A DNA stretch of 62,966 bases, filler included. It is 19 parts of 19 records of this genome, joined end to end, with 100 filler letters (N's around TTAATTAATTAA, not from the genome) between each part and the next. Parts side by side here need not be neighbours in the genome. Positions count along the whole stretch, not along the records: positions 1 to 7,326 come from SRR11831580_2021; 18 more parts are not named here. One strand, given 5' to 3'. Under the pieces are notes generated by a model. That model was not told where the DNA came from and did not search any database. It saw only the letters and a list, made by a program, of their open reading frames with translations. Shown in pieces: positions 1 to 30,950 of the stretch. The translations under genes and the position numbers were made by a program. Within the stretch, counting starts at the first letter, position 1. Each line of letters opens with the position of its first letter.

Positions 1-700
1 CCTTCTTCGCGTGGGGCAACAACGACATCACATCCCGCATCAAGTGACGATATCTGCTCACAAAAGGTGAGTATCCAGTGTAACAGAATGGGGACGATGA
101 ATGTACCTTTGGCTAATGCCTCGTGTCCCCAGCACCAGAACCCGCTCGAATTTCGACTTGGATGACGACGTGTCTTCGTCATCACGTTCGCTTACAGTAC
201 GCTTATTCTTGCGTTTGCTATTACCACTAGAAACAATTACACCGTCCATGATGCTGCAAAGAATGTACACACAAACGCAAGCACACTGCTTGGGTGGAAT
301 GGAGTTGTGTGTTCGCCTCTACAGCTCCTCTTCGCGAGTCGCGACGCACTGTGTGCCAGTTCGGTCACAATCGTTCCAAAACCGCTTCTTTGCCTTCTCC
401 CTGACAAGGGTTTTTCCTGACAACCACGCGAGAGACTCATTTTTTCGTCATCTTTGCAACTCCCATGCACTGTCTCAGTTCCTGTTCCAGCAACTGTGAC
501 GTCGACTACGCCCCCAGCTGGTGCCAAACTACCACAAACCGGTAAGCGCTTCATGTTTCAGACCGAACCGGCATTCTGCTGAATTTTGCTTGATGCGTTG
601 ATGTACGTGCAGTCACTGTAGAACTAAGCTGTGGGCGTTTTCTAACTCCGCATTGTATCCGCTCTTGAATCCTAGCTTCGCCCTGTTTCGACACTTGTGG

Positions 701-3700
701 ATGGGTGAGCAAGACGACGCACTGACATGGGAGTGCTGTTTCCCCGGCTGCACTGCCTACACTAGTGCTCTGTTCCCCACCACTATCGCTCAGAGAAAGT
801 GGGTAGAAGTACTTTACCTGCCTTCTGAGTTCGAGGCTCCATGTTCGGGAGCACTCTGCTCGAGCCATCAGATGGTGGCTCGCAAGTTGACCGGGGCGGA
901 TAAAAGCAGGCGCACCGAGGCATGGAACAAACTTATCAAAGATCTCACGGCTGCTGCTATTCAAGAACGCGAATCGGGGGGAGATGTGAGCTTGTGCATG
1001 GCAGCGCTCCGACTTGAGAACAACTGCGATCACTGGTTACTGGATGACTGGCGTCTATTTGTGTCCCTGGTGCTACATGGACGATCCTATCCCAGGTTTA
1101 CGTACTACTGCTCAATCCGAATGGCTTTCGAAATCGTTTTCGAGGAAGTGCTGGAGGAAGAGATGATTGCAGCGCCTGCAGTACAATGCGTCAGTTTGTT
1201 GCGACGGCTGGATGTTGGTACAGTTGAAGATGCGTCAGAGGGGATGTGGTATTCGCAGCGTGCGCGTTCATTCGTTCCGCAGTTGTTACAGGACAAATGT
1301 CTTCATCTGGCTACCCTCGTAGGGAGCGAGAATGCACGCAACGCTGGTCGTTGGTGTAAGTGGTTGAAGCGTTCGGGATTGTCGTGTTTTGAGGAGCGGA
1401 GCCACCCTCGCTCCAGTGTACGGTTTCTGTTTCCTCAGAACGTCAGCCACGACATCGTTGCGATGAACAGTTGCGTTGGGGATGATTGCGTTGCTGATGA
1501 TGAGGTCACGGTACAGCTGCCATCTGAGACACCGACATGGCTCAGTCTCGCGACCAACGTTAGAGACTGTCTCGATGTGGTGGCAGCGAACGATGCGGAG
1601 CTTCCACCGTCGCAGATGCTCTACTTTTTGAACAATGATATGTTAAGCGCTCTGCTTGCTGTTGTGGCCGAGCGCGGGGAGATTCATCGAATCATCGAAG
1701 AAGGACCTCGCGCGTATATGTCTGGGAATCTCAACAGGAAGCAACGGCGAGCGGTCCTGCGGGCTGGGACTATCGTCAGCGTTGCGCTGCAGCCAAAGAA
1801 GGGGCGAACTCCGTGGTTGCAGGACCGCGTGGGGAAGGTATTGTTTGCTCGGGGGAAGAGGAAGTCTCTGGCTTTTCTGCGCCAGTACGGCATCTCCAAC
1901 AGCTACTCCAAGCTGTTCACACGTCTACGGTTGCTTCGCGCAACGAGTCACGCGAATGTCACGCGCGTCCCATCTTCCTCCGCTCTGGGTTTTGCTACGG
2001 TGGATAACATTGACTTTGGCAAACCACTGGCGCTTGATCCTACGGCATCGCTGCACAAAGCTACCGCAATGTTCTTACAGCCGCAACCTCGTACGTTTCT
2101 TCTGTTTGCCCGGTGTGCGTGCGTGGGTGTTTATCTCTGTGTGTGCGTGGTGGTGTGTGTTGCGTGCATCTGGTTGGTGTGCGTGTGTGTGTCTGTGTGT
2201 GCATATGTTCACATGTGTTGTGTTTACATATGTGCACGTGGGTTTACGCACATGTGTGTTTTGCTTCGTGGCGTGCGTGCGCGCGGGTTCGTTTGTAAAC
2301 ATTTGAATGTAACCGACGTGTCTGTGTGTAGTTCCCTCGTCTGTCCCGGCAGCTGACGAAGCGTCCTCCTCATCGTTGCTCTCCGCTACGAACGCTGAAC
2401 CGTCACAGTCGATCTCAACAGTCGAGGATTTGTGGGAAGACATCGTGCGGTCTCATCTATCGAACGACTCACTTCCTTCATATGAACCGACAGGCGCACG
2501 CCTGCACGTGAATGCTTACAAAGCGTATGATGTGCAACCAAACACGTTCGATTCCGTGCGATCATTAGTGGCTGCGGTGAAGGAGGACATGGCACTCACG
2601 GAGTATCAATACGGAGTGATTGGGGCAGATTACGGGATATGGTATCGCCTGTGTGAGCTAAAGGTATGGAGTACTCTCTGCGACTATTCGTGCGTATCTC
2701 ATAGTGCTGACGTACTACATTGCACGGTTATATATGTGCAGCACTCAATATGTTCTCTAACTGTTTGGTTTTGTTCTCAGGACCGCAATCCCCGTGACTA
2801 CGGTTGGATGGTTCCCGTACTTGGCGATCTGCATATATTGAAAGCCGCCTTACCTGCAGTGTGGCAGCAGGTGCGCCGCATGTAATGTGAGTGTGGTGTG
2901 CATGTATCTCATCGTTGGTATGTATGCAGGTAAAGAGCATCGGTGGAGATTCGATATTGAGCCAGATATTCACACGAGGCCAAACCGAACGAATCACCCA
3001 AGCTCACGGACACGGCTTGATAGGTCTATCATTCGAAGTGCGTCACGGGATTCTGTTCGAGGTTATCTGTGTGTCTGTTTGTTCGTATCCATAACCTGTA
3101 TATGTTCGTGATTGTTATAGGTCCTGTGCGCGCTGCATGATGCACTGATGGCGCAAATGACCACGGATTACGCGGCTTGGCTCCAGAACAATCGCGATCT
3201 TCCTGACCAGTTGGACTCCCTGGCGGGAACCCGCATTTGGTTCCAGCCAGGGGTGCGCTTCCCAGTGGCGAGGAAGGCCCTCTCGGCTCAGCTTTCGGAC
3301 TTGGAGGCAATTGAGACGCTCAGCTGCGACCAGGCGGACGTGCTGGTGTGCAAGTCCGGCTGCCCGCAGCAAGCAGCATATCCGCGTCGCACTGTGACGT
3401 TTGAATGGTTCAGAGCGTCCGTCGCTGCGAAGCGACATCTTCCACTCAAAGACTTTTTGATGTGCGAGGGTAAGGGCGAATTTCATCTGAGAACGGTTCC
3501 CCAATACGCCGTTGTGGGGCTTGAGAAGATTGTGCAGGCACGGGGCCTAGCGGTGACGCAGTTGCGAGAGCCACGTTTGGGAGATCACATTCCACATACT
3601 GAACTGAGGTGTGGAGTCTATTGCTATACGCAATAAATATGTACTCGACTGTCTAATCTGGGTGTTGTATTGTGTGTGCAGCTTTACAGAGTGGGCCACT

Positions 3701-6454
3701 GCGGTGGCGTCTTCTGATGCCACGTTTGCGCTGTGGTACGACTGGTGTTGGCACTGGGTGTCCCCGCTGCGTGCGCTTCAACACGCATCACGCACAGGAA
3801 ACTGGGAGCTGCGCCTGGACGCGCTTTCCAACATGCTCCCGGCGCTGTATGCGTACGGGGGGTGCCACTATCAAAAAGCTGTGCCGGAGCACCTACGGCA
3901 GATGGCACTACTTCCCACGCAAGTCCTCAGCGCGTTCAGCACAGGGGCGTTCTGTGTGCAGCTTACCCACGCAAGTGTGGCGCTGGACACAGCTCATGAG
4001 TGTGGTGTGAACCTGATTTTGAAGCGCCTGCTCAAGAACCCGTCCGTATCCCAGCTGTTTTCAACGTGTGATTACGCACTGCCGCTCCTGGAGCAGGTGC
4101 AGCACGCTGAAGAGGCAAGCCATGTGGACGACCACGCCACCCGCAGTAGAGGACGGAGCGGTGAGCTCCAGAGGCGGTTGAGAGTCTGTGCCCTGACCAC
4201 GTTTCTGTTCAGACCCACATGTGCGACCGCGCGGCCGCTAATACATGTGGGCAACGGTGGAGCAGCGAATGAGGGCTGCGCTTCCGCCACAGCCTATGCA
4301 TGTGGTGACCTACGCCGCCGCGAGTCGCAGGTATGTCTTCGCTACTGATGTTTGCATGTCTTGATTTGTCTATATCCTGTTTAGTTTGCATTGCTATAAC
4401 ATATTGATTTCTGTGTATCTTGTTTAGCGTCTGTTTGGGCTGTCCGCAGAAAAGGTCACCCTAAAGCGATGGCGCTCGTTTCCGCGGATTTGTAGCAAAG
4501 AGTCGCCTATTCGCAAGGAGGTTAGCCTGGCTGAGAAACGAACCAAAACTGCAAAAGGTAGAGAGATTTGTATGGAGTTTTTGCCTCATTTCTGATGCGT
4601 ACACTGCCGTATGTGCTGTTTATACGCATCCGTTATATAGAGATATGGAGCGCCAAAGTAGAGCTTCTGCAGCAGAAGATTTCAGCTGGAGCAGTAGTAA
4701 CAGCAGGTGACCTCCGTGAACTTGTATCTACCGCCTTTCCCTTCTGTTTCACCTGGGGAGCACAAAAACACGTGTTTTACGACGTGCTGGCAGACGAAAT
4801 CGGAGAGATACCGTTGCACCACGGCGATCTGGACGCAGTTCATGCACTGGATGTGTTGCGCTTTCTGCACTCTGCACACGGCGCAACGTTCCGGGAGCTG
4901 GTATCAAACGCCGCGACGATCATGCTGCGCAACCGTGGGCACGCGTTACTGTGTGCGGACAACCCAGAATGGGCATTGGGTATTAAAACCCTAACGCAGG
5001 ATTTGCGAGACGTCGACGCAACGCCCGTGGAGGTCACTGCAGATGGACAGTACTCCGGTAAACTGGGGCGGGCGGAGAAGCCAGGCGTACTGCAACTGCT
5101 GCGCGAACACGTTCGGGCACTTCAACATGAGACACCACTCACCCTGTGTGGCTTTGACACCACCGGGTTACCCGAGTACATATGTACTCCAGACGGCGTT
5201 GCGGATGTCGGTGTTGCTTCCCCAATCACTGCGTACAAGCACCCGGAAGCAGATACAGGCATGGTGTACGCCGGCGTATGTTCAGCTGAGGCAATGAAGC
5301 TCCCTCTTGTACTTCATGCGAACGACACCGACGTGCTGATCATCGCCGCTCTGCGAATGCGAACAACTGCGCTGCGCATTTACGTTAAACGCGACGAAGA
5401 CACTGTGGTGGACATACGGGCTCTGACAGGCCAGATCGAGCAGCACGCTGTTTTCGCACGTTTCTCGGACCCAGTCGCGGTTGCTGCGTTACTGTATGCT
5501 GCAGCTGGGTGCGATTACGTGGAGAGCACACGTGGCGCAACACATCGCACATACATGAAGGGCTTCATTTCACACGCGGGATGGATTGGCGGGGCCACCA
5601 CGGACAGCGTATCTGCGCAGGTCACAGTCAATCCGGTATGGCGGGATTCTGAGAACGCACTACATTATGATCCCAATGCGTTGCGCCGCCTGTACATGGC
5701 CATGGTTGCCAGTCAGCCCCGCAACACGAAGCTGTTTCGCGATGCTTCGCTTTCCGATCGCATGCGCAGCTTTGCTACAACAGAAGAGCAGCTAGATCAC
5801 CTCCGCGATCTCATCAACATCCACTCCGAAATCGAGTATCAAGTTCCGCATACCTCAGCAATCGACCGGCATATGCTGCGCGCCGTGGCTGCGCTCCACA
5901 TTTGGCTCAGCACGCACACCGCGGAGTTAAGAATTCCGGACATCACACGACTTGGATGGTATCGCATTGAGCGCGGACTGGATCCGGAGTACCTTGCTCC
6001 GGAGGTCGCGGCACAGCAAGAGGCGTTAGTCAGCCCCGTCAGGTGCGGATGCGCTACAGGATGCGTTAGAAGATCGTGCGGCTGCGTCAAGGTGAACGCA
6101 CGCTGTAACAGGCGCTGCACTTGCAACAGTTGTCAGAACCGAGGCCAAGCGACCTCTGTAACTGCGCCGGCTACCCACGTGGACGTTACGAATCTGATCC
6201 AGTGCGAAGTCTGTCTCACCTGGAGGCAAGTGGACGCGCTGCCTGATGGCGCCGATGACCTGCACTGGAGATGCAGCATGGACCCCGTACGTCTCCCGTG
6301 CAGTGTGGTACGGGATACCGATGACCGCTGCGACTGCATCCTCTTGCCGATGACAGCTGAAGAAGAGTGGTCACAGGAGGAACAGTACGCATCCACGGTG
6401 GAGGGATCCGACGCAAACAGCAACGACCTGACCGATCTCCTCACCTCCCTGTAG
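701..6454 (+). mobile_element. AcademX-type DNA transposon gene (Academ transposase + XPG/PIN nuclease + Cys8/CXC finger, with added THAP-like and CW-type zinc fingers); element termini not defined
   Basis: Motif order typical of Academ: GFATVDNIDF (D1, ~2003), VIGAD (D2, ~2628), VPVLGDLH, SRTGNWELRLDALSNMLP...GGCHY, LDTAHE (E, ~3998). Then XPG-like HPEADT / NDTDVLII / AGCDY, then HMLRA...W...GW, then CGCATGCVRRSCGCVKVNARCNRRCTCNSCQN. No TIR pair found in the window. Confidence 0.8.
701..6454 (+). CDS. Spliced ~1667-aa transposase, 8 exons: 701-2090, 2353-2663, 2781-2870, 2930-3061, 3121-3608, 3682-4330, 4428-4557, 4641-6454
   Basis: All seven introns are GT...AG and phase-compatible. The exons sum to 5004 nt with no internal stop and join track ORFs 653..2356, 2376..2885, 2891..3094, 3148..3636, 3611..4348 and 4568..6454. 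First in-frame ATG is at 701; an upstream exon cannot be excluded. Confidence 0.8.
2091..2352 (+). repeat. TG-rich low-complexity intron (intron 1 of the transposase gene)
   Basis: GTACGT donor at 2091, imperfect (TG)n/(GTGC)n runs, CAG acceptor ending 2352. Confidence 0.8.
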
Positions 6455-6477
6455 AACGGGACTGATTAGTCCCGTTC
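6454..6477. other. Perfect 10-bp inverted repeat / hairpin overlapping the transposase stop codon
   Basis: GAACGGGACT-GATT-AGTCCCGTTC. Confidence 0.9.
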
Positions 6478-7326
6478 GAGCGAACTAAACATAAAACAGA
6501 CACACAAATACAGGTTATAAGATGCGCAGCCCAGAGCACGAGTGAATAAAGCACTAAGAACAAACTATCACCCATCACGTACCACGAATATCAGGGACTT
6601 TGCTTAGTGGTGGACGATCTGCAGCAAATAGCAATGCCATATCAATCTATTACCGATGCATGCTGTGAAAACGAACAGCCGATATGTCACCTTCATGCTG
6701 TTTCAACGCGAAGTAACCACTCGGACAACGACACGTCTGCACGATCACAGAATTAGAAGAAGAAGCATCGATCGTATTTCTGAACTCTGCAGCACGTCAA
6801 GCACACCAATGATGCAGCACAGAGGGGATGCGTTCGATTGCGCGAGCACACGTACCTTTTTCTAAGACCTGCCATCTCGCGCATGATCCGATGCGCACGC
6901 AGCGCAGAGAGCGAGCGTGACAGGCAACATAAGAGAAAACGTGCATTATACACCATTAGGACACTCAGAATGGCCAGGTTTCCTACAGAAGCATGACGCA
7001 TCCCATTACAACGCCACTGTGAGTACTGCAATTCCTTTGAAGACAAGCTCACTTACCTTTTCTGAGACGGTGAACACTATCATCTGAGTCCGGTAAGACG
7101 AAGTTCGTGGATGGGCGAGTTATAGGATCTCGGCAATGGCAAGAGATGAAGTATCCGAAAAAGCGGCAGGACATAGTCTGAGCATGGGGTATCAATACTT
7201 CAACATATGTCTTCTGGAGAACAAGAAGCCGCCACGATACAGCATGGCAAAGTGAGCCAAAATTGAAGGGTGGGAGAAGCGTACCTCGCTATAGAGAGGA
7301 GTTTGGCGGGATTCTGACCGAACTGC

Positions 7327-7426
7327 NNNNNNNNNNNNNNNNNNNNNNNNNNNNNNNNNNNNNNNNNNNNTTAATTAATTAANNNNNNNNNNNNNNNNNN
7401 NNNNNNNNNNNNNNNNNNNNNNNNNN
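7327..7426. other. Artificial contig spacer (44N-TTAATTAATTAA-44N); first of 18, the others starting at 10012, 12809, 15270, 17641, 19817, 23542, 26532, 28796, 30951, 33504, 36138, 40438, 45009, 51246, 53485, 57431, 60572
   Basis: Identical 100-bp block. The palindromic 12-mer places TAA stops in all six frames, and genes are truncated at the spacers. Confidence 0.99.
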
Positions 7427-12908: not shown

Positions 12909-13873
12909 CGCCCCGCAGCGCACACACACAGCCGCACCGCCCGCTCCTGTGAGCGGAACCACAACCATTGTGGATGCGATGCAGGTGGACTGGCGTGGTG
13001 CGGCCAAGGTCTTCCCGCAGAGCCTCCCTGTGCTGCCTGTCATGCAGCCCTGCATCGTGCTTGTGGCGGAGGTGTGTGGGTGTGTGTGTTCGCAAGCCGC
13101 TTGTGTGCTCTGTCATTCGCTGTGTGTTTGGGGTGTTTGTCTCAATCATATCTTCCCAGTATGGCGTCCGCCCGTCTCCTGCGTCCTCTCTCTCTGTTTT
13201 TTTTTCAATCTCTCTCTCTCTCTCTGCATTCTCATGTTATGTGACCCCCGCAACTCTGTCTGCAGGTGCGGCTCATGATGCTGAGCCAGACACCACTCGA
13301 CTTTGATGTGCACCTGGTGATGCTCGACTCGAAGGGAACCGAGGTTATCGTATGTTCCTGTGTGTAGCGTGCGTGTGGAGCGTGGCAGTGAAGGATTGTG
13401 TGTCCTCGGTGTCGCGCCTTCTCTCTCTCTTTGTGTTTCCCCGTTGCGTGCGTGTGCTGGGCCTAACAGTTCCTGGCAGTCTTCCGTCTCACCATCGTTG
13501 TTTCAACGCCTCCTCAGACAAGAGCGAGCCGTCATCAACCGTACGTTGATCTGCTTGCGCTCATAACGTATTGTGTGCTGTGTGGAACGCTCAGGTGGTA
13601 GGTTTCTTTCTCGCTCCGTCCTCGGCTTTCGCATCACTCCATACATCCATATTTATCAACACATCCACACCCTGTCTGCCCCTCTCTCACCCTCCTCGCC
13701 CCATCCGTGCAGTGTACATGCAATCGGTTCCGGGGGCAGAGTTTGTGCGCAACGCTGTGGCGCAGGCGGCTCAGGGTCTGACCGCAGTCAAGTGTGGCGT
13801 GCTGCTGTGCACGACGCCGCAGTCTGCGGGGGGATGTGTGTGTCAGGATCTAGTGGTCCTGGGCCCGCGATAA
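12909..13873 (+). CDS. 3' end of a spliced eukaryotic gene (exons 12909-13071, 13266-13349, 13480-13540, 13713-13873), possibly RMI1 C-terminal OB-fold
   Basis: Phase-compatible GT-AG introns. Peptide FDVHLVMLDSKGTEVISSVSPSLFQRLL...VAQAAQGLTAVKCGVLL follows the hydrophobic spacing of RMI1_C, but identity is low. Confidence 0.4.
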
Positions 13874-14413
13874 AACCCACCGTTGTTGTGTATTTGGTGT
13901 GTGAACCAACACCATCCCGAGTGAACATTTGTATTGTTCTAAGCCACGGCCGCATTTCATGTGTACAACTGATGAATTTTGGTGTGCAGTTGCTGTCTCA
14001 GAGCCGCACAGGCACAACCTCCCCCCAATAGCCGACACAATAATCCCGATTTACATCTAACTTGTATTCATTCATCAATAACTCATCGGAGGCGCATCCT
14101 CTGCACCGCGATACTTGTGTATTCAAACAAAGGCGAAAAAAAGAAGAACGCGGATTACAGCATAATCCCAACACAAACACACAACAAAGACGGCAGCAAA
14201 AGAACATGCTTGAATCCCGCGTGTACAATTGGCGGGTGTGATATAGTGCGCCTTTCGTAATCTTGAGTGCTACGTGTTGGCAAAGCTTCCACGCGGAAGA
14301 GTTCATCTGTGTATTCCTGTGTGCGTTATGCGTCACGGTATCAGCAGCTGATGCACACGAATGAAGGACAAAAGTATACGGAAACGCCGCACAGACGAAA
14401 CAAGATGCCCGCT

Positions 14414-15164
14414 TCATAGACCGGAAGACTTGGCCAAATAGTCAATGTCCACATCGGACAGGCGCACATCCTTCCGATGCAGCGGCTCCAGCGATATGCC
14501 CCCCATACCGCCCTCGTTCAACAACATCGGGTGCGCATTGCGTCGCTGCTCTGCGCTGCGAATCGACTCCAGAATAAAATCCTTTGTCAGAGTCTCCTCC
14601 AGGTCACTCTCACTCTCTGTGCCCGTCCGCAGCAGGGCCAGCCGCACCAGCACGGGCACAGTTTCGCAGAGAAGATACACACACATGAGCCACAGTTCCA
14701 CCACACACTGCGGGAGCGTGCTGTCGAACCAGTGACTGTTGCCCCATATGAAGAAGGTGACCGCATAGAGAATGAGCGCGATGCAGGTTACGTATGCGAC
14801 CACCGATGCCTACACACAGAGTAACATCGACACACACACGTACAATGGGTGCGTGAATGAACAGCGATATGATACACGACACTCTTGTCAGCAGGCTGGG
14901 CTGTGTATAGAAACAATGACTGCGCATGACAACATGTGAACATCGGTTACACAGAGACGTATCGGAGAACACGAGGTGGCTCTCTGACACTTTACAATGA
15001 CACTTTATAACGGCACTTTACAGGGACACGTTACAATGGCGTACCCTCGATGTCCGACGATTTTTGACTGGTAAGCGGCTCAGGAACCGCCGGAGCAGCA
15101 TCGCAGTAACAAACACACCCAGATTCATCAACAGGAGCGTGGCCACAAACAGCATATGTGCGCC
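14414..15164 (-). CDS. Last two exons (15164-15045, 14809-14414) of a TOM1/THH1/GPR137-like multipass membrane protein
   Basis: Spliced peptide ...AMLLRRFLSRLPVKNRRTSRASVVAYVTCIALILY...VYLLCETVPVLVRLALLR resembles the last TM helices and the E-x-x-P motif of the TOM1/THH1 family. Confidence 0.6.
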
Positions 15165-15199
15165 CTACACAGAGCATCATCAGTGAGAAAACACGGGCA

Positions 15200-15269
15200 C
15201 ACATACACACACTCTCACTCACACTGACACACTTACTCACACTCACTCACTCACACTCACTCACACTCA
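15200..15269. repeat. (CACT)n/(CA)n microsatellite at contig end
   Basis: Tandem CACT/CA units running into the gap. Confidence 0.85.
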
Positions 15270-17740: not shown

Positions 17741-18870
17741 GACTACAAGTCACGCACCTCCGATGTGACAAGGTCCAGGAGGCTGAAGTACTCTAGCAGA
17801 CGCGGAAGGCCCTGCTCGGCGTTGCCAACAATCAACACAGATACCTGCACCTGATGAGAGAGTGTTTGCACATCAAAAACAGGACCACGACGAGAGAACA
17901 CAGAGTGTAACACGAACGAGCGCAAGCGTTTAAACATATATGATTTGGTTCACGGTGTGCGGTGGCCGCGTGTGCCGTGTGTGCAGCGCGGTTCGTACCT
18001 GCGTCCCAGAGAGCAGACCCCCTGTCTGTTTGGGCGCTAGAGTGCTATCGTAGATCACAGGAGCACCAGTTGCAGCGTCGATGCTCAGCGTGCACGAGTA
18101 CACTAGTGTCTGATCCACAGCTGCACAACAACAACGCAGAATGCACTTGAGCATGCTCAGTTTTCAAGTCGGATTCTGAAACGCATACTGGTGGTGATCA
18201 CGTGCATAGCTCCGTGGCCGATGAACTGCTGAGCGTATCTGTTAACGAAACCATGAATAAGCTGCTTTCAGGTGTGATACTTGAAAACTGGATAGGGACA
18301 GCACTGACGAGGACGTACAGTAACACGCCCTTAATTCCCACGCCATATTTGCCCTTGCTCTCTCGCGGGCCGCTTCCGTCTCTCTCACATCCTGCCGTAG
18401 TCGCAAAAAGGCGCCCGAGGAGCGAAGCGACAGCTTCCATCGGAATGCCAGAGCCCGTGTCCTGAACTGTGTAAACGAACCAAACATTGACTTGTAAACA
18501 CAAAACGGGACTTCAGTGGTCTTGACTGCTACCTTTGATGCTATATAGGCCGTCGCTCCCGTGCGGACACTGGATCTGATGGTCATCCACCCTCGAGATG
18601 AAGACCTCCACTTCTTTGCGCAGAGATGCGCGGCACGCATCAAGGGAGTTTTCTAGTAACTGCCAATTTTGACGTCAGCAACCAATACAGTATCCCTTTG
18701 CAAAATTACCTCGCGCACTGTGGTGTACATGGCGTCTGATGGTGATCCAAACCCCGCTATTTCCAAGTCTTGAAAGTAAAGTCAGAAAGAGAGAATAGCG
18801 CGTTTGTGTTTGCTGTACTTTCCGCCATGAATTGGGAGCCATTTCGATGATTTGGCTGTACAAGTGCCAT
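17741..18870 (-). CDS. TOP6B: Topoisomerase VI subunit B-like GHKL protein, N-terminal part (exons 18870-18819, 18768-18710, 18659-18533, 18466-18252, then ~18109-17998 and ~17844-17757; 3' truncated)
   Basis: Spliced: SQFMAENLEIAGFGSPSDAMYTTVRELLENSLDA...LYSIKVQDTGSGIP...LLGRLF...KGKYGVGIK...CTLSID...SGTQVSVLIVGN, collinear with plant/archaeal Top6B motifs. Confidence 0.88.
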
Positions 18871-19194
18871 GGTTGTCCAGATTGATGTTCAAAGGAGCGG
18901 GTTTTGTCGCGCGACTGCTATTCTTCCAAAGTTCTTCACAACCAGAACATGAAAACTGCGCTCGAATCGCGAGAAACAAGCTCATGAGTCATGCGGCTGT
19001 CTGAGTGTCAGAGACATTGAGGTCACGGGATTTTTTCCTGAAAAGTCACCTCACCATGCGTTGCACTTTGCTGTGCTGCACTGTTTGTCAATCACTATTT
19101 CCCAATTTGCGTGTCTGCTCCCAGCTTACTCCTCCTAGCCCGCAGTTGAATTATATAACCTTCGCCACACTCAACGTGCTTGAAGTTTGGAACG

Positions 19195-19816
19195 ATGCCG
19201 ATCTTCACTACCAAACTAAAAGCTTTGGAATATTCTCGCTGGGATAATTTCGATATCAATAGTACGTCGTTCTTTCACGTCCGACTCTATACCGACATCC
19301 TGTAGACTTGTCGGATGTGTTCGCTCTCGTATCTTGGTTAGAGAAAGCGAAAATTCACCATTATCATGACACGAACAACGATTTGATGACTTACTCACCG
19401 CGGTGGCATGCGAAGCTGGCAAAGGTACACAAGTGGTGTGCGTGATCACAGAGTCCCTTCTAACACGCACCACAGTATTTGTCGGATCTGGGGTGTCCGC
19501 GAGCGTACGGGGACCGCATGGATTCGGCCACGCTGACGGCCGCAGTTGACTGGCTGCTTTCCCACGCTGTTTCGTTAGAATTCCGTGAGAAATGTATGCG
19601 TTTGTATCATGCATGGGCACAGCGTGGCGTGTGTGCCTCTCTCCCTCTTATTTTACTCTTTGTTGCACGTTATTCTCTATCGGTGTACTTCCTGATTTGC
19701 GAAATCTCGGACGGTGAAGTGGGGTGAGACAGTGATGTGTGTTCTTATTCGTTTGGTATCGTACGTAGCGGAGGAAATCAACACGGCGGCGGCGCAGACC
19801 CTTGTCTTCGAGCATT
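19195..19816 (+). CDS. RTRAF: RTRAF / CGI-99 / C14orf166 homolog (tRNA-ligase complex subunit), 5' exons, 3' truncated
   Basis: Spliced: MPIFTTKLKALEY...LVSWLEKAKIHHY...W...KYLSDLGCP...AVDWLLSHAVSLEF, matching the family pattern FxxKLxALxY / WLExxKIxHY / KYLxDxxCP / IDWLLxxAVxLEY. Confidence 0.88.
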
Positions 19817-23641: not shown

Positions 23642-24654
23642 GTTCTTGAAGAGCACCAGGTTGATCTTGTCGCCGATGAAGACAGGGTCGCCTAACAAGG
23701 TCAACAAAAGAACAAACGTCAGCAACGATGGTGGGGGAATGAGAAAAAAGATGCGCGTACCCTCATTACGGGCCTTGGACCCGGGCACGATCTTAAAGTG
23801 ACAGTGTGTGTCAGCATGCGTCAGCACGAACGGGCTGGGGCGTCGTTTGCTGCTGGAGCCGGCTGTTCAACACAAGAGGCACACACGTGAGCAGAGCAGG
23901 CACACTTACATCGCGCACAGCGAACTGTCGTTTCATGTCATAGCACGCGCAATATGGAACGGGTGAAGATTGAGACGAGGACGTACTGCTTCGGTCAAGG
24001 GTCATGAACTGGTGCGACGCCATATCTCGGAGCATGATGGCCTATACAACACACATAAATATAAACAACTACACAACAACGTACACACGCATACACACGC
24101 GCACGCACAGACACGCATACTATGCTCGCACAATAGAATCACATACATAATCTGCGCACATACATCGCCATGCACTCAGAACAGCACTGTGCATACCTGC
24201 CCATAGGTAACACGCTTCGAACGTTCCCGAATTTCCGTATCTATATTCGCTTTGCGCTCTTCTTCCATATCCGCCTCTGCGTTTTCACCACGTCCCCACC
24301 CTATACGCTCACGGTGTTAAACGTGACTCCACTTCGGGACAAGGAGGACATGTCGTACCAATGCCAGTTTATCAAACTTGAGCTTCGGAACAACCTGCCA
24401 CACTTTGTTGTGCACGCTAGCAAGCGGTTTTCTAGCGGTTGTTGCTTTCGCTACAAGTGTAGCGTTACGAATGACAGTGGACGTGCACTCGACGTACTTT
24501 GCTCATGATCCACGACAGGCTCCTGGAATGCGCACACGATATTATCTAAGGAGCAAAGTACTGCATTGGGCTCTCCCGATCCTGCGGCACTCAGCGAGAA
24601 CAGCACTGAATCTCCAAAATGGAGAAACAGGTCCTCTTGCTGGAATCCGCTCAT
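23642..24654 (-). CDS. Inositol 1,4,5-trisphosphate receptor-like channel, N-terminal exons (3' truncated)
   Basis: Spliced: FLHFGDSVLF...VWQVVPKLKF...EEERKANIDTEIRERSKRVTYGQAIMLRDMASHQFMTL...HFKIVPGSKARNEGDPVFIGDKINL, collinear with the IP3R suppressor domain (FLHIGD, YGxxIQL, RxxGDxVxxGDK). One junction near 24300 is out of phase beside a homopolymer run. Confidence 0.78.
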
Positions 24655-24964
24655 TTGCGGCCCTCGAAAGCCGGAAAGCTTTTAAGCACAAGCGTGAATT
24701 CCTGCACGACAGTCCGAAGAGATGATAGCTTTGTGTGCGGCAGCAACTTCACCACACAGTCTGACACCAATCTCCTCCGAGTCCGTCTGACACCTCTTCA
24801 TCAGACAGTCGGACTGCAGCCAGCGTGGCTCAGTGCCAGGCAGCGCGGGAATTTCCGCGCGTACGATCGTTTCTGGTTTTTGGGCTCATTTGTTTTGCTT
24901 TGTTCAAGGAAATACTTAGCCACTTTCTGTGGATACTATTTGTGCAGAGCCGCAGTTCGCGAAG

Positions 24965-25971
24965 ATGCGTGCAGCGTCGTATAAAGTTCAAATCGCAATC
25001 TTGTACCTGTCTACGTTAGTGGAAATCGTTATCAATGGAGTGTTTGGAACGGTTGGAATTAGTCTGGTTGCAGTGATTGCTTTGACCATGTACGAGAAAT
25101 CTTTGCATCCGAACCGCGTTCTCAAGCCTTTTGCAGTGTTCAAATAGCGGCATTATTCTCCAACTTTGTGGTTTGCTATCTTCTGTTGGCACGCACATGG
25201 TTCTTTGAAGCTGGCTTGTTCGGTCTTCTTCTCTCCAAGTTCAAGTGGTTGTTCATCGTTTCGTTGGTGAATTTGATTTTCGTCGGCGGCATGCGCGGTG
25301 CCTTTATTGTACGTCTCCCTGTTGCATACTGTGTGTTTGTGTCCGAAGAGACTATGTATCGCGCGCGGTGCTCTCTCTCTTCCAGTGTGCGTGTGCGTGT
25401 GTTTGTCTGTGTATACCTGCGTGTGTATGCGTGTGCGCAACATGCATGTGCTTGTGTTTTGCGTGTCCGTGTGTTGCTGTGATCGTGGCAGTGTACCTTT
25501 GTGTGCATGCCTTGTGTTGTTGTGCCCTGTTTGCGCTGTTCCACATGGGCTCGTTGTGTTATCTCCGCCGCACGCCTTCTTTTGGAGATGGCTGATTGGG
25601 TGGGATGTGCTAGGTGTTCATGTCGTCATCGAGCTACTCATTGACAACTACATGGAGCAACGCCGTCATTTACATCCTTCTTCCGCTGCAGAAATTATGT
25701 ACGTGGAGGAATACTCTGTGTGTATGTGTGCGTGGCGTTTTGGTCTGGCGGCTGTGCGTATAGCAGCATATATTTGAATGATAATGTTGGGGCGACGGCA
25801 TCCCAGACACCCACCCGATTCCCATTGTCGTCGTGCTCACATACAACAACACCGATTGTAGGGTCCATTGTGTATTATCTCACCATACTCACACTGCTGC
25901 GGCGGATCGGGTCCTCCAAACTGTACCGGCCCACACACGAGGAGGTGGACAGAACACTGCGAGGGCGTTGA
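24965..25971 (+). CDS. TMEM138: TMEM138-like ciliary membrane protein (spliced)
   Basis: TWFFEAGLFGLLLSKFK resembles the TMEM138 core (TFVFQAGLxxLLxxKFK); C-terminal YY...RRIGSSKLY; TG-rich introns. Internal exon boundaries not all resolved. Confidence 0.75.
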
Positions 25972-26828
25972 TGCTGTGTGTGTGCGGTGGTGGTCATGGA
26001 CGGGCTCAACTACAGGGGCCCAGCTGCGTGGCAATGGTTACTGCCACATCACTCGCTGGCTGTCGGCGAAGCGGCCGCGCTCGACCTCCGCAGCAGAGCC
26101 CGTGAATGTAGCTGCAGTCCGTTCCTAACTCACAGCGTAGTGTATGTTGTGCGTACCGCGGTATGTGGAAGAGAGATATGCGCGCCCTCAGCGTTCATGC
26201 TCGCAGCTGCGTTATGACTGTGTCAAACACTGCTGCGAGGCAATGAGATGGAGTGTGCGGGGATTAGTCGTCCCATTCGGACGGCTGCGAGGGGTTGAAG
26301 TCAACCTACAAGACAGTAATCGTTCAGGTGAGATTGCAGTGCGGCGTTCTCAGAGTATGAAGTGGCGGGATATAAACCAGCGAGCACGACATAATATGCA
26401 GCATGCAATGGATGTTACATAAGGCAACATCCCACATATCTTCGCGCATTGCCCGTGAGTCACGCGCACTACTGCAACAACACAGCATTTGAGATGGAGG
26501 GGTCACTTGCGTACCCGCTTGTCGTATACAANNNNNNNNNNNNNNNNNNNNNNNNNNNNNNNNNNNNNNNNNNNNTTAATTAATTAANNNNNNNNNNNNN
26601 NNNNNNNNNNNNNNNNNNNNNNNNNNNNNNNCACACACACACACACCCACATACACACACAGAGCGAGGAACATCATGGGCGCAATCGTATCAGAAGTTC
26701 AAACCACCGACCAGGACTGGTCCTGTAGTGCCGACTCATAGTCACATGCGATTACGTAACAGAAGAAAGCAATTCATTAACAGACGGGCAAAAGCGCAGA
26801 CAACAACACAGCAGTAGCGGGAACGTAC

Positions 26829-28610
26829 GGGCTGATCTGGACCGCTGTGAGCCATATTCGGATAGAAAGATCACGGTTGGCGTCATCAGACCGTTCCTGC
26901 AACGAACACACACAAACACAAATACACGCATGACCAGCCGTTAATGATAGCACAAGCACAATGACTACACATGCACAGAACACACAAAAATAAAATGGTG
27001 TATCTGACAAATCGCGCAAGTATTTCAGCTTAGATGCAACCGAGAACGCACCACAAAACCACCGCAACCATCACGGGGCACACTCATTCATACTGAAAGG
27101 AACCAGCACCACACACCAACACGCATCACCCGGTATGTTCGCTTCGCATACAATACACACATGAACACATATGCTGTCTAAGCGAAGAAACACATGACGT
27201 ACCGAGGCGCTGAGACCCAAGAGTTCGAGTGCGAGCAAAATGCGCTCCGGTTGTTGGAGTTCGTCTTGCAAGTGTGCAGACATGTTCAAACACTCACCGA
27301 TCAATTGCTACACACACACGAGGATTCTCGTTCATGAGCGGAGCAACGTGGCAAAACACAAAGACTCAACGTACACATTCAGAGACGGAAAAACACAGAG
27401 CACACACTGACCTGGGAACAATTACTTCAGAATCTATGTGTACCTCTACGGAGAGAGGGCGAGCCGGGGCGGCGTGATCTGTACTGAAAAGGCGTTCCTG
27501 CGCTTGAATGATGTACAGAGGGCCGTTGAAATCTACGCGCTCACAACAACAGAGAACGTTAAAAGTAAGACAGAGCAAGAAAGATACACACATACGACGG
27601 ATAGATATATGTATGTGACGCAGCACGCGCACAGTGCAGCCACCAATGCTCCCAATTCACCAACGAAACAAACGCAAACAGCTTGGCCGCAGATCTAACC
27701 CTCGCAACTCCGCATGTACACGCACATACACACACACAAACAATCGTCTGATCATACCACTCAGCTGGGCAGCGTCTCCACCACTTGCAATAGCGGCAAG
27801 CTTCCCAATACTAAACAGCGTCTTCTTGCGTGCGACCACCGTGTCCTCTGCCTGTGCCAGCCGCTTAAGCGTGTGGGAGGCAGAACTGAAGTGGGCCGGC
27901 GTAGAGGTGAAATTACCCACCGCAATATCGTGAATCCTGACAAAACAGACAAACGAGCGCGGTGTTAGAGGAAGGAGCAGAGATACGAAACAAGAAACAG
28001 TATAGCTGCTGTAGTGAGAGGAGCGGGGACTCTACACTATATACGGCACGTTGATAACGCGTTGAAGTGCAGTTTAGGTCCACGGCGCACCAATGGCAAA
28101 CACTCAGATGCAGTTCCTATCTATATATGCGAGCGTACCATGCAAGGTCCGGGTGATTCTGCAGAAAACGCGACAAGAAATCCCACAGAGCCTGTGGCAG
28201 GGAGAGCAGCTTCGCACGCAGCCCTGTAGACGAACAGCGTCAGCAGATAACGAAACGCGTGCACAGATGAAGAGGACAGCACGCACACGAATCAGCTTGC
28301 AAACAAGTAAAGTGTCCATTCGAAAGTGCAGCAGCCAACACAACACCACACTGGCAAGCGCTTGCAGAGACCCGACTGATGATAGCAAAGCACACATTCA
28401 CACAGAACAAAACACAAACACATATCACACAAACACAAACATAAAACACAAAGATGACACCACGAAACGTAAGAAAACATACCGTTCTTGAGATACCACC
28501 GAAACGCCGCGTCCGCGAACTCATCTCCATAGGCGCCAATATATCGTTGCAATGCCGTCGGATCCCCAGATTGTTCGCACAGCATGGTCAGCGTATCGTA
28601 ATCACGGTAC
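26829..28610 (-). CDS. NUP133: Nucleoporin Nup133, internal exons of the C-terminal region (boundaries approximate)
   Basis: YRDYDTLTMLCEQSGD...LQRY...FADAAFRWYLKNGLRAKLLS...LSRFLQNHPDLAWIHDI...ASHTLKRLAQAE...RKKTLFSIGKLAAIAS, collinear with metazoan Nup133. Confidence 0.88.
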
Positions 28611-28895
28611 CTACACAGAGGGACATATATCACAAATCATCGGAAGTGAGACTCAAACGATGAGGTGTGCAAGGGGTTGGGAAGAACAATCTGAAAACCA
28701 TCGAATAAAACATGAGGATGGATGTACACAAAGGAAAGCGGGTCCTACGCCGCCACACTACACTAAGACACACACACACACAAACACACACACACNNNNN
28801 NNNNNNNNNNNNNNNNNNNNNNNNNNNNNNNNNNNNNNNTTAATTAATTAANNNNNNNNNNNNNNNNNNNNNNNNNNNNNNNNNNNNNNNNNNNN

Positions 28896-29139
<244 letters not shown>

Positions 29140-29157
29140 GTCGGGATTCCTGTTTTT

Positions 29158-29173
29158 ATACGTCTGGATGTCT
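29158..29173. promoter_or_regulatory. Two tandem MET boxes (MetJ operator) upstream of metC
   Basis: ATACGTCT-GGATGTCT versus consensus AGACGTCT. Confidence 0.8.
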
Positions 29174-29308
29174 AAACTAGCATGAATATTCGCGGGCGCA
29201 TCCTGAAGAATTGGCATAAAGCAGAAAATTTTCGCAAATGGCGTGCTGGTGACTTTTTTACTGCGTAAACGCAAGGAAAAGAAAGCAAAGGTACGGCAGT
29301 ATGCAAAT

Positions 29309-29327
29309 AGTAATGAGAACGACTATC
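29309..29327 (+). promoter_or_regulatory. Fur box upstream of exbB
   Basis: AGTAATGAGAACGACTATC versus GATAATGATAATCATTATC. Confidence 0.7.
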
Positions 29328-29390
29328 AATTCGACGTCGTTTTGATATTATTATGCGCAGATTTTGTGACTTGCGTCCTGGAGATACACA

Positions 29391-30125
29391 GTGGGTAATA
29401 ATTTAATGCAGACGGACCTTTCCGTCTGGGGTATGTATCAGCACGCCGATATTGTCGTTAAGTGCGTGATGATTGGGCTTATTTTGGCCTCCGTAGTCAC
29501 CTGGGCAATCTTCTTCAGTAAGAGCGTAGAGTTCTTCAATCAGAAGCGTCGCCTTAAGCGCGAGCAGCAACTGCTGGCTGAAGCGCGTTCCTTAAACCAG
29601 GCCAACGATATCGCCGCTGATTTTGGTAGCAAAAGCTTAAGCCTGCATTTGCTCAATGAAGCGCAGAATGAGCTGGAACTGTCAGAAGGCAGCGACGATA
29701 ACGAAGGTATTAAAGAACGTACCAGCTTCCGTCTGGAGCGTCGGGTCGCCGCAGTGGGTCGTCAAATGGGCCGCGGTAACGGCTATCTGGCAACCATCGG
29801 CGCGATTTCTCCGTTCGTTGGTCTGTTTGGTACGGTCTGGGGCATCATGAACAGCTTTATTGGTATCGCGCAAACGCAGACCACTAACCTGGCAGTCGTT
29901 GCGCCGGGTATCGCAGAAGCTCTGTTAGCAACGGCAATCGGCCTCGTGGCAGCGATTCCTGCGGTCGTTATCTATAACGTATTTGCACGCCAGATTGGCG
30001 GCTTTAAAGCGATGCTGGGTGATGTTGCAGCGCAGGTATTGTTGCTGCAAAGCCGTGACCTGGATCTGGAAGCCAGCGCCGCTGCGCATCCGGTTCGTGT
30101 CGCACAAAAATTACGCGCAGGATAA
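29391..30125 (+). CDS. exbB: TonB system protein ExbB
   Basis: SPFVGLFGTVWGIM, VAPGIAEALLATA; GTG start; 244 aa. Confidence 0.98.
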   Translation: MGNNLMQTDLSVWGMYQHADIVVKCVMIGLILASVVTWAIFFSKSVEFFNQKRRLKREQQLLAEARSLNQANDIAADFGSKSLSLHLLNEAQNELELSEGSDDNEGIKERTSFRLERRVAAVGRQMGRGNGYLATIGAISPFVGLFGTVWGIMNSFIGIAQTQTTNLAVVAPGIAEALLATAIGLVAAIPAVVIYNVFARQIGGFKAMLGDVAAQVLLLQSRDLDLEASAAAHPVRVAQKLRAG

Positions 30126-30131
30126 TATCCG

Positions 30132-30557
30132 ATGGCAATGCATCTTAACGAAAACCTCGACGATAACGGCGAAATGCATGATATCAACGTGACGCCGTTT
30201 ATCGACGTGATGTTGGTTCTGCTGATTATCTTTATGGTGGCGGCACCGTTAGCGACGGTAGATGTGAAGGTGAACTTGCCTGCTTCTACCAGCACGCCGC
30301 AGCCGCGCCCGGAAAAACCGGTTTATCTGTCGGTGAAGGCAGACAACTCGATGTTTATCGGTAACGATCCGGTCACCGATGAAACAATGATTACGGCGTT
30401 GAATGCGTTAACCGAAGGCAAGAAAGACACCACCATCTTCTTCCGAGCGGACAAAACCGTCGATTACGAGACGTTGATGAAGGTAATGGATACGCTGCAT
30501 CAGGCGGGTTACCTGAAGATAGGTCTGGTCGGCGAAGAAACCGCCAAAGCGAAGTAA
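30132..30557 (+). CDS. exbD: TonB system protein ExbD
   Basis: INVTPFIDVMLVLLIIFMV; 141 aa. Confidence 0.98.
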   Translation: MAMHLNENLDDNGEMHDINVTPFIDVMLVLLIIFMVAAPLATVDVKVNLPASTSTPQPRPEKPVYLSVKADNSMFIGNDPVTDETMITALNALTEGKKDTTIFFRADKTVDYETLMKVMDTLHQAGYLKIGLVGEETAKAK

Positions 30558-30565
30558 AGTAGAAT

Positions 30566-30663
30566 TGCCTGATGCGCTACGCTCATCAGGCCTACAAAAT
30601 CTATTGCAACATGTTGAATCTTCATGCGTTTGTAGGCGGATAAGGCGTTTTCGCCACATCAGG
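30566..30663. repeat. REP pair (BIME-like)
   Basis: GCCTGATGCGCTACGCTCATCAGGCCTAC and inverted GTAGGCGGATAAGGCG... Confidence 0.85.
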
Positions 30664-30683
30664 TAAGAGTGAATTCACAATGA

Positions 30684-30718
30684 TGCCCGGTTGCTTTTCA
30701 CAACCGGGCATTTTTTTA
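30684..30718. terminator. Intrinsic terminator between exbD and yghA
   Basis: TGCCCGGTTG...CAACCGGGCA followed by a T run. Confidence 0.8.
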
Positions 30719-30950
30719 ACCTAAATGCTCGCCGCCGCACACGCCGTGCACTTCTGCGGTGACGTAGCTCGACTCCTGACTTGCCAGATAAACATATACA
30801 GGGGCCAGTTCCGCCGGTTGCCCCGCACGTTTCATCGGCGTTTGCTGACCAAACTGCGGGATCTTATCCTGCGTTTGTCCGCCGGAAATTTGCAGTGCTG
30901 TCCAGATCGGGCCTGGCGCGACAATATTCACCCGAATACCTTTCTTCGCG
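30716..30950 (-). CDS. yghA: SDR oxidoreductase YghA, C-terminal fragment
   Basis: [10 protein letters not shown]...[12 protein letters not shown]...SSYVT. Confidence 0.92.

Follow-up and report, generated by a model that had tools for sequence, protein, structure and literature searches.

A probable CW-type zinc finger with an incomplete aromatic cage in an Academ-like transposase-nuclease

Can a cut-and-paste DNA transposase carry a chromatin-reading finger and, if it does, would that finger read methylated histone H3? Transposable elements with chromatin-reading modules can choose their landing sites, as exemplified by the chromodomains in some retrotransposons. The question is raised by a gene on the first contig (SRR11831580_2021, positions 1-7326) of a 62,966-nucleotide window, the whole stretch of DNA analyzed here, in which 19 contigs are joined by linkers of the form N44-TTAATTAATTAA-N44 (7327-7426 and 17 further ones), each with a stop in all six frames. 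Since the linkers join separate contigs, features must not be read across the joints. The last open frame of the gene (4562-6454, + strand, standard code) is a 630-residue stop-free frame (P0001), whose residue numbers are used below. An initial annotation of the window had proposed that the C-terminal part of this protein includes a CW-type zinc finger, a type known for reading methylated lysine 4 of histone H3 (H3K4), by which the element may choose insertion sites or evade silencing, possibly with an altered methyl preference. Our analysis points to domains of known kinds that are combined in a new way, namely a CW finger on an Academ-like transposase-nuclease. As far as the sequence allows us to judge, the novelty is modest and at the level of annotation; the targeting mechanism is only a candidate.

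The segment at issue reads LIQCEVCLTWRQVDALPDGADDLHWRCSMDPVRLPC (aa 545-580, nt 6194-6301). Its predicted features are as follows.

6194..6325 (aa 545-588), + strand: CW-type zinc finger (Pfam zf-CW, MORC3 CW alignment, P0003 profile, atlas features)
6203-6205, 6212-6214, 6272-6274 and 6299-6301, + strand: predicted zinc ligands C548, C551, C571 and C580, respectively (MORC3 alignment)
6194-6196 and 6221-6223, + strand: cage residues, with L545 instead of Trp at the floor and W554 at the wall, respectively; the core Trp is W569 (MORC3 alignment)

When the last 107 residues are searched, Pfam zf-CW (PF07496) matches aa 545-582 with an E-value of 6.4e-5 (23.3 bits; profile positions 2-43 of 47); on the whole frame the match has an E-value of 7e-4 (20 bits). 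In a phmmer search against 177,635 PDB sequences, five MORC3 CW chains come first (E 7.8e-4 to 1.7e-3, aa 545-588), followed by ASH1L and MORC2/4. A two-sequence profile, built with the relative P0003, gives a CW match at E 6.3e-4. The atlas language-model features of aa 538-598 score 0.93 to a zf-CW cluster (197 of 256 shared), and the ten best named matches are all zf-CW. Moreover, the four-cysteine pattern C-x2-C ... W-x-C ... C is present and aligned with the MORC3 ligands, which suggests that the segment binds zinc. The motif initially noted at 6190-6325 is thus borne out, and its position agrees with both the Pfam and the PDB match ranges; only its ten-residue spacer has to be corrected, as the gap between RQV and WRC comprises 11 residues (DALPDGADDLH). 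Of the three signature tryptophans, W554 (wall) and W569 (core) are present, and the floor position is occupied by Leu545. Overall, the segment is very probably a CW-type zinc finger, as had been suggested.

How common is such a finger in the family? A phmmer search against 1.84 billion representatives revealed 347 relatives at E<=1e-3, of which the best 150 were listed. Most relatives match aa ~220-545 or ~400-545 and finish at the CXC domain, which precedes the CW segment. In the family alignment (the window protein and 137 relatives; 135 rows with the last CXC cysteine aligned), the tail after that cysteine has a median length of 31 aa in 134 relatives. A CW-like segment follows the CXC domain in just two of the 135 aligned rows, those of the window protein and of P0003 (297 aa, 37% identity across aa 411-587). 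The two carriers share the pattern LIQC..C..WR...LP.G..D..W..S..PVR..C, the leucine included; therefore, the floor-less state would be ancestral to a small lineage. By its distribution in the alignment, the CW finger is a rare add-on, specific to one lineage and inserted behind the CXC domain, ahead of the tail. Other carriers may exist beyond the best 150 of the 347 relatives. Three word-indexed protein searches (with the whole frame, with aa 535-630 and with aa 480-630 against longer proteins) found no relative, a result that is word-limited and therefore weak evidence. No relative was found either in metagenome contigs searched with alignment A3 and P0001 or in genome contigs searched with P0001. 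In the literature, no CW-bearing transposase was found, as judged by titles and abstract starts, and no paper linking Academ and zf-CW was found, curated Repbase entries lying outside this comparison. The view that a CW finger is unusual for this family thus holds within the set covered, none of the 137 relatives matching zf-CW.

Other modules also occur at the ends of these proteins. In P0014 and P0141, the position taken by the CW finger in the window protein is occupied by a second CXC that follows the first, and the family C-terminus seems especially prone to gain small zinc modules. Another accessory-domain variant is P0007 (2252 aa), in which a NADAR domain (E 2.4e-17) at the N-terminus precedes DUF6589 and the nuclease.

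Several results weigh against our reading of the segment. The Pfam score obtained stays under the curated gathering score of 27.5, so that the zf-CW match expected by the initial annotation is found in the profile search without reaching the curated threshold. In AlphaFold2 (AF2) models the CW part has a predicted local distance difference test (pLDDT) score of ~33 within the long model and 42.5 when modeled alone, which leaves the fold unconfirmed; with the poor CW-only model as a query, Foldseek lists a MORC3 CW domain first at E 0.41 and nothing at E<=0.001. Among the best 150 of the 347 relatives, P0003 is the sole other carrier; its third zinc ligand is replaced by Tyr, and a search with P0003 alone gives no match to CW chains, so that the module may be decaying there. 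In addition, the three lines of support (Pfam, PDB and atlas) are all sequence-based and not mutually independent. All this would fit a CW likeness that arose by chance, the segment being a linker that happens to contain Cys and Trp or an unrelated small zinc knuckle after the CXC domain. Such a coincidence would nonetheless have to produce matches from two different libraries (Pfam and PDB) that cover nearly the whole domain, with all the CW signature positions but one in place, as well as an atlas list headed by zf-CW exclusively. In addition, as a control for Cys-rich bias, none of the 137 CXC-bearing relatives matches zf-CW at E<=0.01. We therefore regard chance likeness as very unlikely and continue with the segment as a CW finger.

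Would this finger read methylated H3K4? In the alignment to MORC3, Leu545 falls at W410 and W554 at W419. This agrees with the initial annotation, in which the first cage Trp was replaced by Leu, with the second Trp and the four zinc ligands kept; the Trp of W-x-C is likewise retained in the alignment. The complete aromatic cage that characterizes the H3K4me3-reading (trimethyl-H3K4-reading) CW subclass (MORC3, MORC4, ZCWPW1) is therefore absent. The consequences can be gauged from published work. The MORC3 CW domain binds H3K4me3 at 0.6 uM; W410 and W419 cage the lysine, and changing either to Ala abolishes binding of an influenza NS1 peptide that mimics H3K4me3 (PMC10612106). MORC2 has Thr496 at the floor and keeps the wall Trp505, and its CW domain folds well (PMC5811534). 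It binds neither H3K4me3 nor any member of a wide H3/H4 peptide set, and it docks on its own ATPase module (PMC5811534; PMC7596504). The MORC4 CW domain also binds DNA (PMC7596504).

Both kinds of CW domain offer useful comparisons. The MORC3 domain (PDB 5svx, 4qq4, 6o5w) is the best PDB sequence match and shares with the window segment the C-x2-C-x2-W-R hairpin, the LPDG.D.L stretch, W-x-C and the final Cys; it differs in having Trp410 at the floor, where the window protein has Leu545, and in belonging to an ATPase, not a transposase. The CW domains of MORC2 and MORC1 (PDB 5of9 and others) resemble the segment in the very feature in which MORC3 differs, a degenerate cage that has lost the floor Trp but retains the wall Trp (PMC5811534). 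MORC2 chains are among the weaker matches, their sequence similarity being below that of MORC3. Furthermore, the MORC2 finger docks on the ATPase module of the same protein, a kind of partner that is not known for the window protein.

Because the floor Trp is missing and the floor-less MORC2 domain does not bind histones, the window finger is unlikely to be an H3K4me3 reader. The proposal of an H3K4-methyl reader that guides insertion is accordingly not supported by the alignment when set beside the MORC3 W410A and MORC2 results. Put in full, the proposal envisages a functional H3K4-methyl reader, possibly one whose preference has shifted among the unmethylated, mono- and dimethylated states (me0/me1/me2), which steers insertion to particular chromatin or protects the element there. 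The CW family is best known for H3K4-methyl reading, with MORC3 and MORC4 as examples (PMC5811534, PMC7596504). The wall Trp, the core Trp, the four cysteines and the LPDG.D.L stretch are common to MORC3 and the window finger, and the presence of Leu in both carriers suggests an old state and not random decay. Non-aromatic residues contribute to some methyl-lysine pockets, and a Leu floor might thus still allow low-affinity methyl-lysine binding, a point that tells against a finger without methyl reading. Nevertheless, the loss of the floor Trp stands against a working reader, whether it is introduced into MORC3, where W410A abolishes NS1-peptide binding (PMC10612106), or natural, as in the MORC2 domain that bound no histone peptide tested (PMC5811534). 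In our estimate, a working methyl reader is improbable.

To understand what kind of protein bears the finger, we turned to the parts that precede and follow it in the last frame.

5129..5995 (aa 190-478), + strand: PIN/FEN-like 5'-nuclease of the XRN/EXO1/XPG/FEN1 fold with a helical domain (AF2 and VIA-align)
6041..6142 (aa 494-527), + strand: Tesmin/TSO1-type CXC domain with nine cysteines (Pfam TCR, conservation, fold)
6326..6451, + strand: acidic C-terminal tail (translation)

The AF2 model of aa 190-600, made with 137 relatives, has a mean pLDDT of 76.9 (229 residues at or above 90) and is confident up to about aa 530, with values mostly above 90 across aa 220-530. In a wide VIA-align search (48,161 chains), this model matched XRN1 (Z-scores 9.3, 9.1, 8.6 and 8.3), Rat1 (8.0), EXO1 (7.2), XPG (6.1), FEN1 (5.5 and 5.1) and GEN1 (5.1); two unrelated short matches, 3-isopropylmalate dehydrogenase (5.7) and the MutL ATPase domain (5.2), are on the same list. 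Foldseek agrees weakly, with Xrn2 first at E 0.042 and no match to the long model at E<=0.001. The family-conserved acidic residues E229, D231, D255, D257 and D318 are all present in the window protein. Pfam XPG has no match in the last frame.

The CXC block reads CGCATGCVRRSCGCVKVNARCNRRCTCNSC (aa 495-524) and is followed by a 20-residue linker to the CW segment. It shows the nine-cysteine Tesmin/TSO1 pattern together with the corresponding fold. All nine cysteines are present, each at least 97% conserved in alignment A1, and the best fold matches are the Lin54 tesmin domain (Z 4.3, 28% identity) and the MSL2 CXC domain (Z 3.9). The sequence match to Pfam TCR (PF03638) is E 0.03 (15.1 bits, cut-off 23.5) for the window protein; 60 of the 138 alignment members match this profile. 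Lin54, whose PDB entry is titled as a tesmin domain bound to DNA, and MSL2 thus have domains of the same fold as the nine-cysteine domain here; the window protein differs from them in having a single CXC copy, located at the nuclease end. The 'Cys8/CXC finger' first noted upstream of the CW segment is hence a CXC finger with nine cysteines, all of them family-conserved, and not eight. The acidic tail noted behind the CW finger is confirmed by the translation and runs to the stop codon at 6452-6454. Among the long tails listed for the aligned family members, most are likewise acidic (D/E/S-rich) and follow directly on the CXC domain.

An upstream exon bears on the assignment of the protein to the Academ superfamily.

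3677..4081, + strand: exon homologous to the DUF6589 (PF20231) region of long relatives, the presumed transposase core (tblastn and profile)

Searched with tblastn, seven long relatives (P0006, P0007, P0026, P0027, P0029, P0037 and P0128) match positions 3617-4186 with E-values of 1e-10 to 1e-16, and a profile built from these seven matches the open reading frame 3608-4345 at E 1.3e-27 (aa 24-158). The matched stretches of P0007 and P0027 fall within their own Pfam DUF6589 matches. Among 49 relatives scanned, Pfam DUF6589 was found upstream of the nuclease-matched region in the long relatives P0006, P0007, P0026 and P0027. On the opposite side of the balance, Pfam DUF6589 does not directly match the upstream exons of the window, and our equation of DUF6589 with the Academ transposase core is an inference not stated in any text consulted; no functional information on DUF6589 was found in the literature. 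Atlas clusters with similar features (scores 0.87) are eukaryotic, mostly from Cnidaria and Arthropoda, and provide a lead only.

Kojima is said to have described AcademX in 2020 as combining a transposase-like region and an XPG-type nuclease in one protein, and to have noted that the transposase of one AcademH sub-lineage includes a PHD finger. The window protein agrees with the AcademX layout, reportedly given already by Kapitonov and Jurka in 2010, of a putative DDE-type transposase region and an XPG/FEN-type nuclease in one protein. The XPG-type nuclease is recognized here by its fold, and the candidate exon order places it in the same gene as the DUF6589-type exon. It differs by the CW finger, which comes after the CXC domain and before the acidic tail and for which none of the 137 relatives gives a zf-CW match. 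The AcademH sub-lineage reportedly offers a parallel, an Academ-superfamily transposase with a small Cys-rich zinc finger of the H3-tail-reader class; it is said to differ from the present case in having a PHD finger instead of CW and a helicase instead of a nuclease. In 2017, the Academ RNase H-like domain had no Pfam match (PMC5751038); another paper assigns a nuclease and 3-4 bp target duplications to AcademX and a helicase to AcademH (PMC10045372). No paper with 'Academ' and 'XPG' together as whole words was found in the literature searched. Based on the layout (DUF6589-type region, XPG/FEN-fold nuclease and CXC domain) and its fit to AcademX, the protein is likely of the Academ type.

Taken together, the observations are in our opinion best explained, with reasonable though not high confidence, by an Academ-like (AcademX-type) multi-exon gene in which the CW finger serves as an interaction module and not as an H3K4me3 cage. 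The order of parts would be a possible THAP finger (see below), the DUF6589-type putative transposase, the PIN/FEN-fold nuclease, the CXC domain, the CW finger and the acidic tail. The CW finger, as a small zinc-stabilized module, might help tether or regulate the protein on chromatin without caging H3K4me3. Two modes of action seem likelier than H3K4me3 caging. The finger may bind an H3-like N-terminal peptide largely or wholly irrespective of methylation, or it may contact DNA or a partner in the transposition complex, next to a CXC domain of the DNA-binding type. For the second mode, the cage-deficient MORC2 and the DNA-binding MORC4 CW domains could serve as precedents.

A more specific version is that a lineage of AcademX-type transposons captured a CW finger with a Leu floor, through which the transposase-nuclease is held at H3 tails with little or no K4 methylation, or at some other N-terminal peptide. 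We consider this version improbable. If true, integration would be biased away from H3K4me3-marked promoters, and the element would be the first CW-guided DNA transposon, with a natural CW finger of new specificity. The case as a whole is thin, as it consists of two sequences, one of them with a broken zinc site, and the cage defect is of the type that abolishes histone reading in MORC2. Even so, if a cut-and-paste transposase does carry a CW finger, this would be a new module among chromatin-reading modules and a natural cage variant for studies of CW specificity.

Is the gene part of a mobile element at all? Its layout on contig 1 and the candidate ends are given below.

approx. 701..6454, + strand: multi-exon gene for the Academ-like protein (first in-frame ATG at 701, stop at 6452-6454; candidate exon/intron model)
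734..871, + strand: candidate THAP-like zinc finger, weak (C-x3-C ... C-x2-H), N-terminal (Pfam THAP PF05485)
357..380, no strand assigned: candidate inverted repeat, left arm, marginal (24 nt, 83% complementary to 7302-7325)
7302..7325, no strand assigned: candidate inverted repeat, right arm, marginal (one base before the contig end at 7326)

The gene is assigned five open frames that follow one another on the + strand (602-2356, 2313-2885, 3121-3636, 3608-4348 and 4562-6454), and their order is collinear with the long relatives P0006, P0007, P0027, P0029, P0037 and P0128. GT-AG junctions that keep the frame are possible between every adjacent pair, with several options per junction. With its split frames and GT-AG options the gene has the look of a multi-exon eukaryotic one, for which the exon model is a candidate. 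A TG/GTGTGC-rich low-complexity stretch at 2100-2300, where the first long frame ends, is probably intronic and renders the first splice junction ambiguous. Pfam THAP (PF05485) is the top match for window positions 701-1000, at E 0.11 and 13.7 bits (cut-off 23.9), covering aa 12-57 and profile positions 1-58 of 87. The THAP-like finger, if real, would be a second DNA-binding finger for the Academ-like protein. A bacterial origin of contig 1 was considered and rejected on account of the split frames with GT-AG options and the lack of any Escherichia coli match.

The inverted pair 357-380/7302-7325 brackets the whole gene, and its alignment score is reached by 5 of 200 shuffles. The arms may be element termini or may pair by chance. 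Contig 1 stops 1 nt past the right arm, which makes any target site duplication there unreadable. Two further results count against a mobile element: there are no clear terminal inverted repeats around the gene on contig 1, this marginal pair being the sole one that flanks it, and the gene occurs only once within the 19-contig window, no further copy being present in the five frame-poor contigs described below. It could accordingly be supposed that the gene is a domesticated Academ-like transposase, now a host gene, to which the CW finger was added for a host chromatin function. Several introns, the single copy in the window and the lack of convincing terminal repeats are in line with this, as is a last exon that forms an intact 630-codon frame with the family-conserved residues kept. 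The intact catalytic-type residues and the family-typical layout fit an autonomous element equally, though, and the contig ends one base past the candidate repeat arm, as happens at repeat borders. On this evidence we rate domestication as unlikely, and retain the Academ-like element gene with the CW finger as an interaction module.

The other contigs of the window are of mixed character. Contig 7427-10011 matches the pepN-ssuB-ssuC region of E. coli at 100% identity and has a match in 5425 of 5426 E. coli genomes, whereas contig 1 has no such match. The assembly therefore mixes eukaryotic and E. coli contigs, which suggests contamination in one direction or the other. Five further contigs (12909-15269, 17741-19816, 23642-26531, 26632-28795 and 28896-30950) have little or no long open frame. 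Frames of at least 150 aa cover 0 to 37% of these five, as compared with 71-100% in the other contigs, and the five may be further eukaryotic pieces, intron-rich or non-coding.

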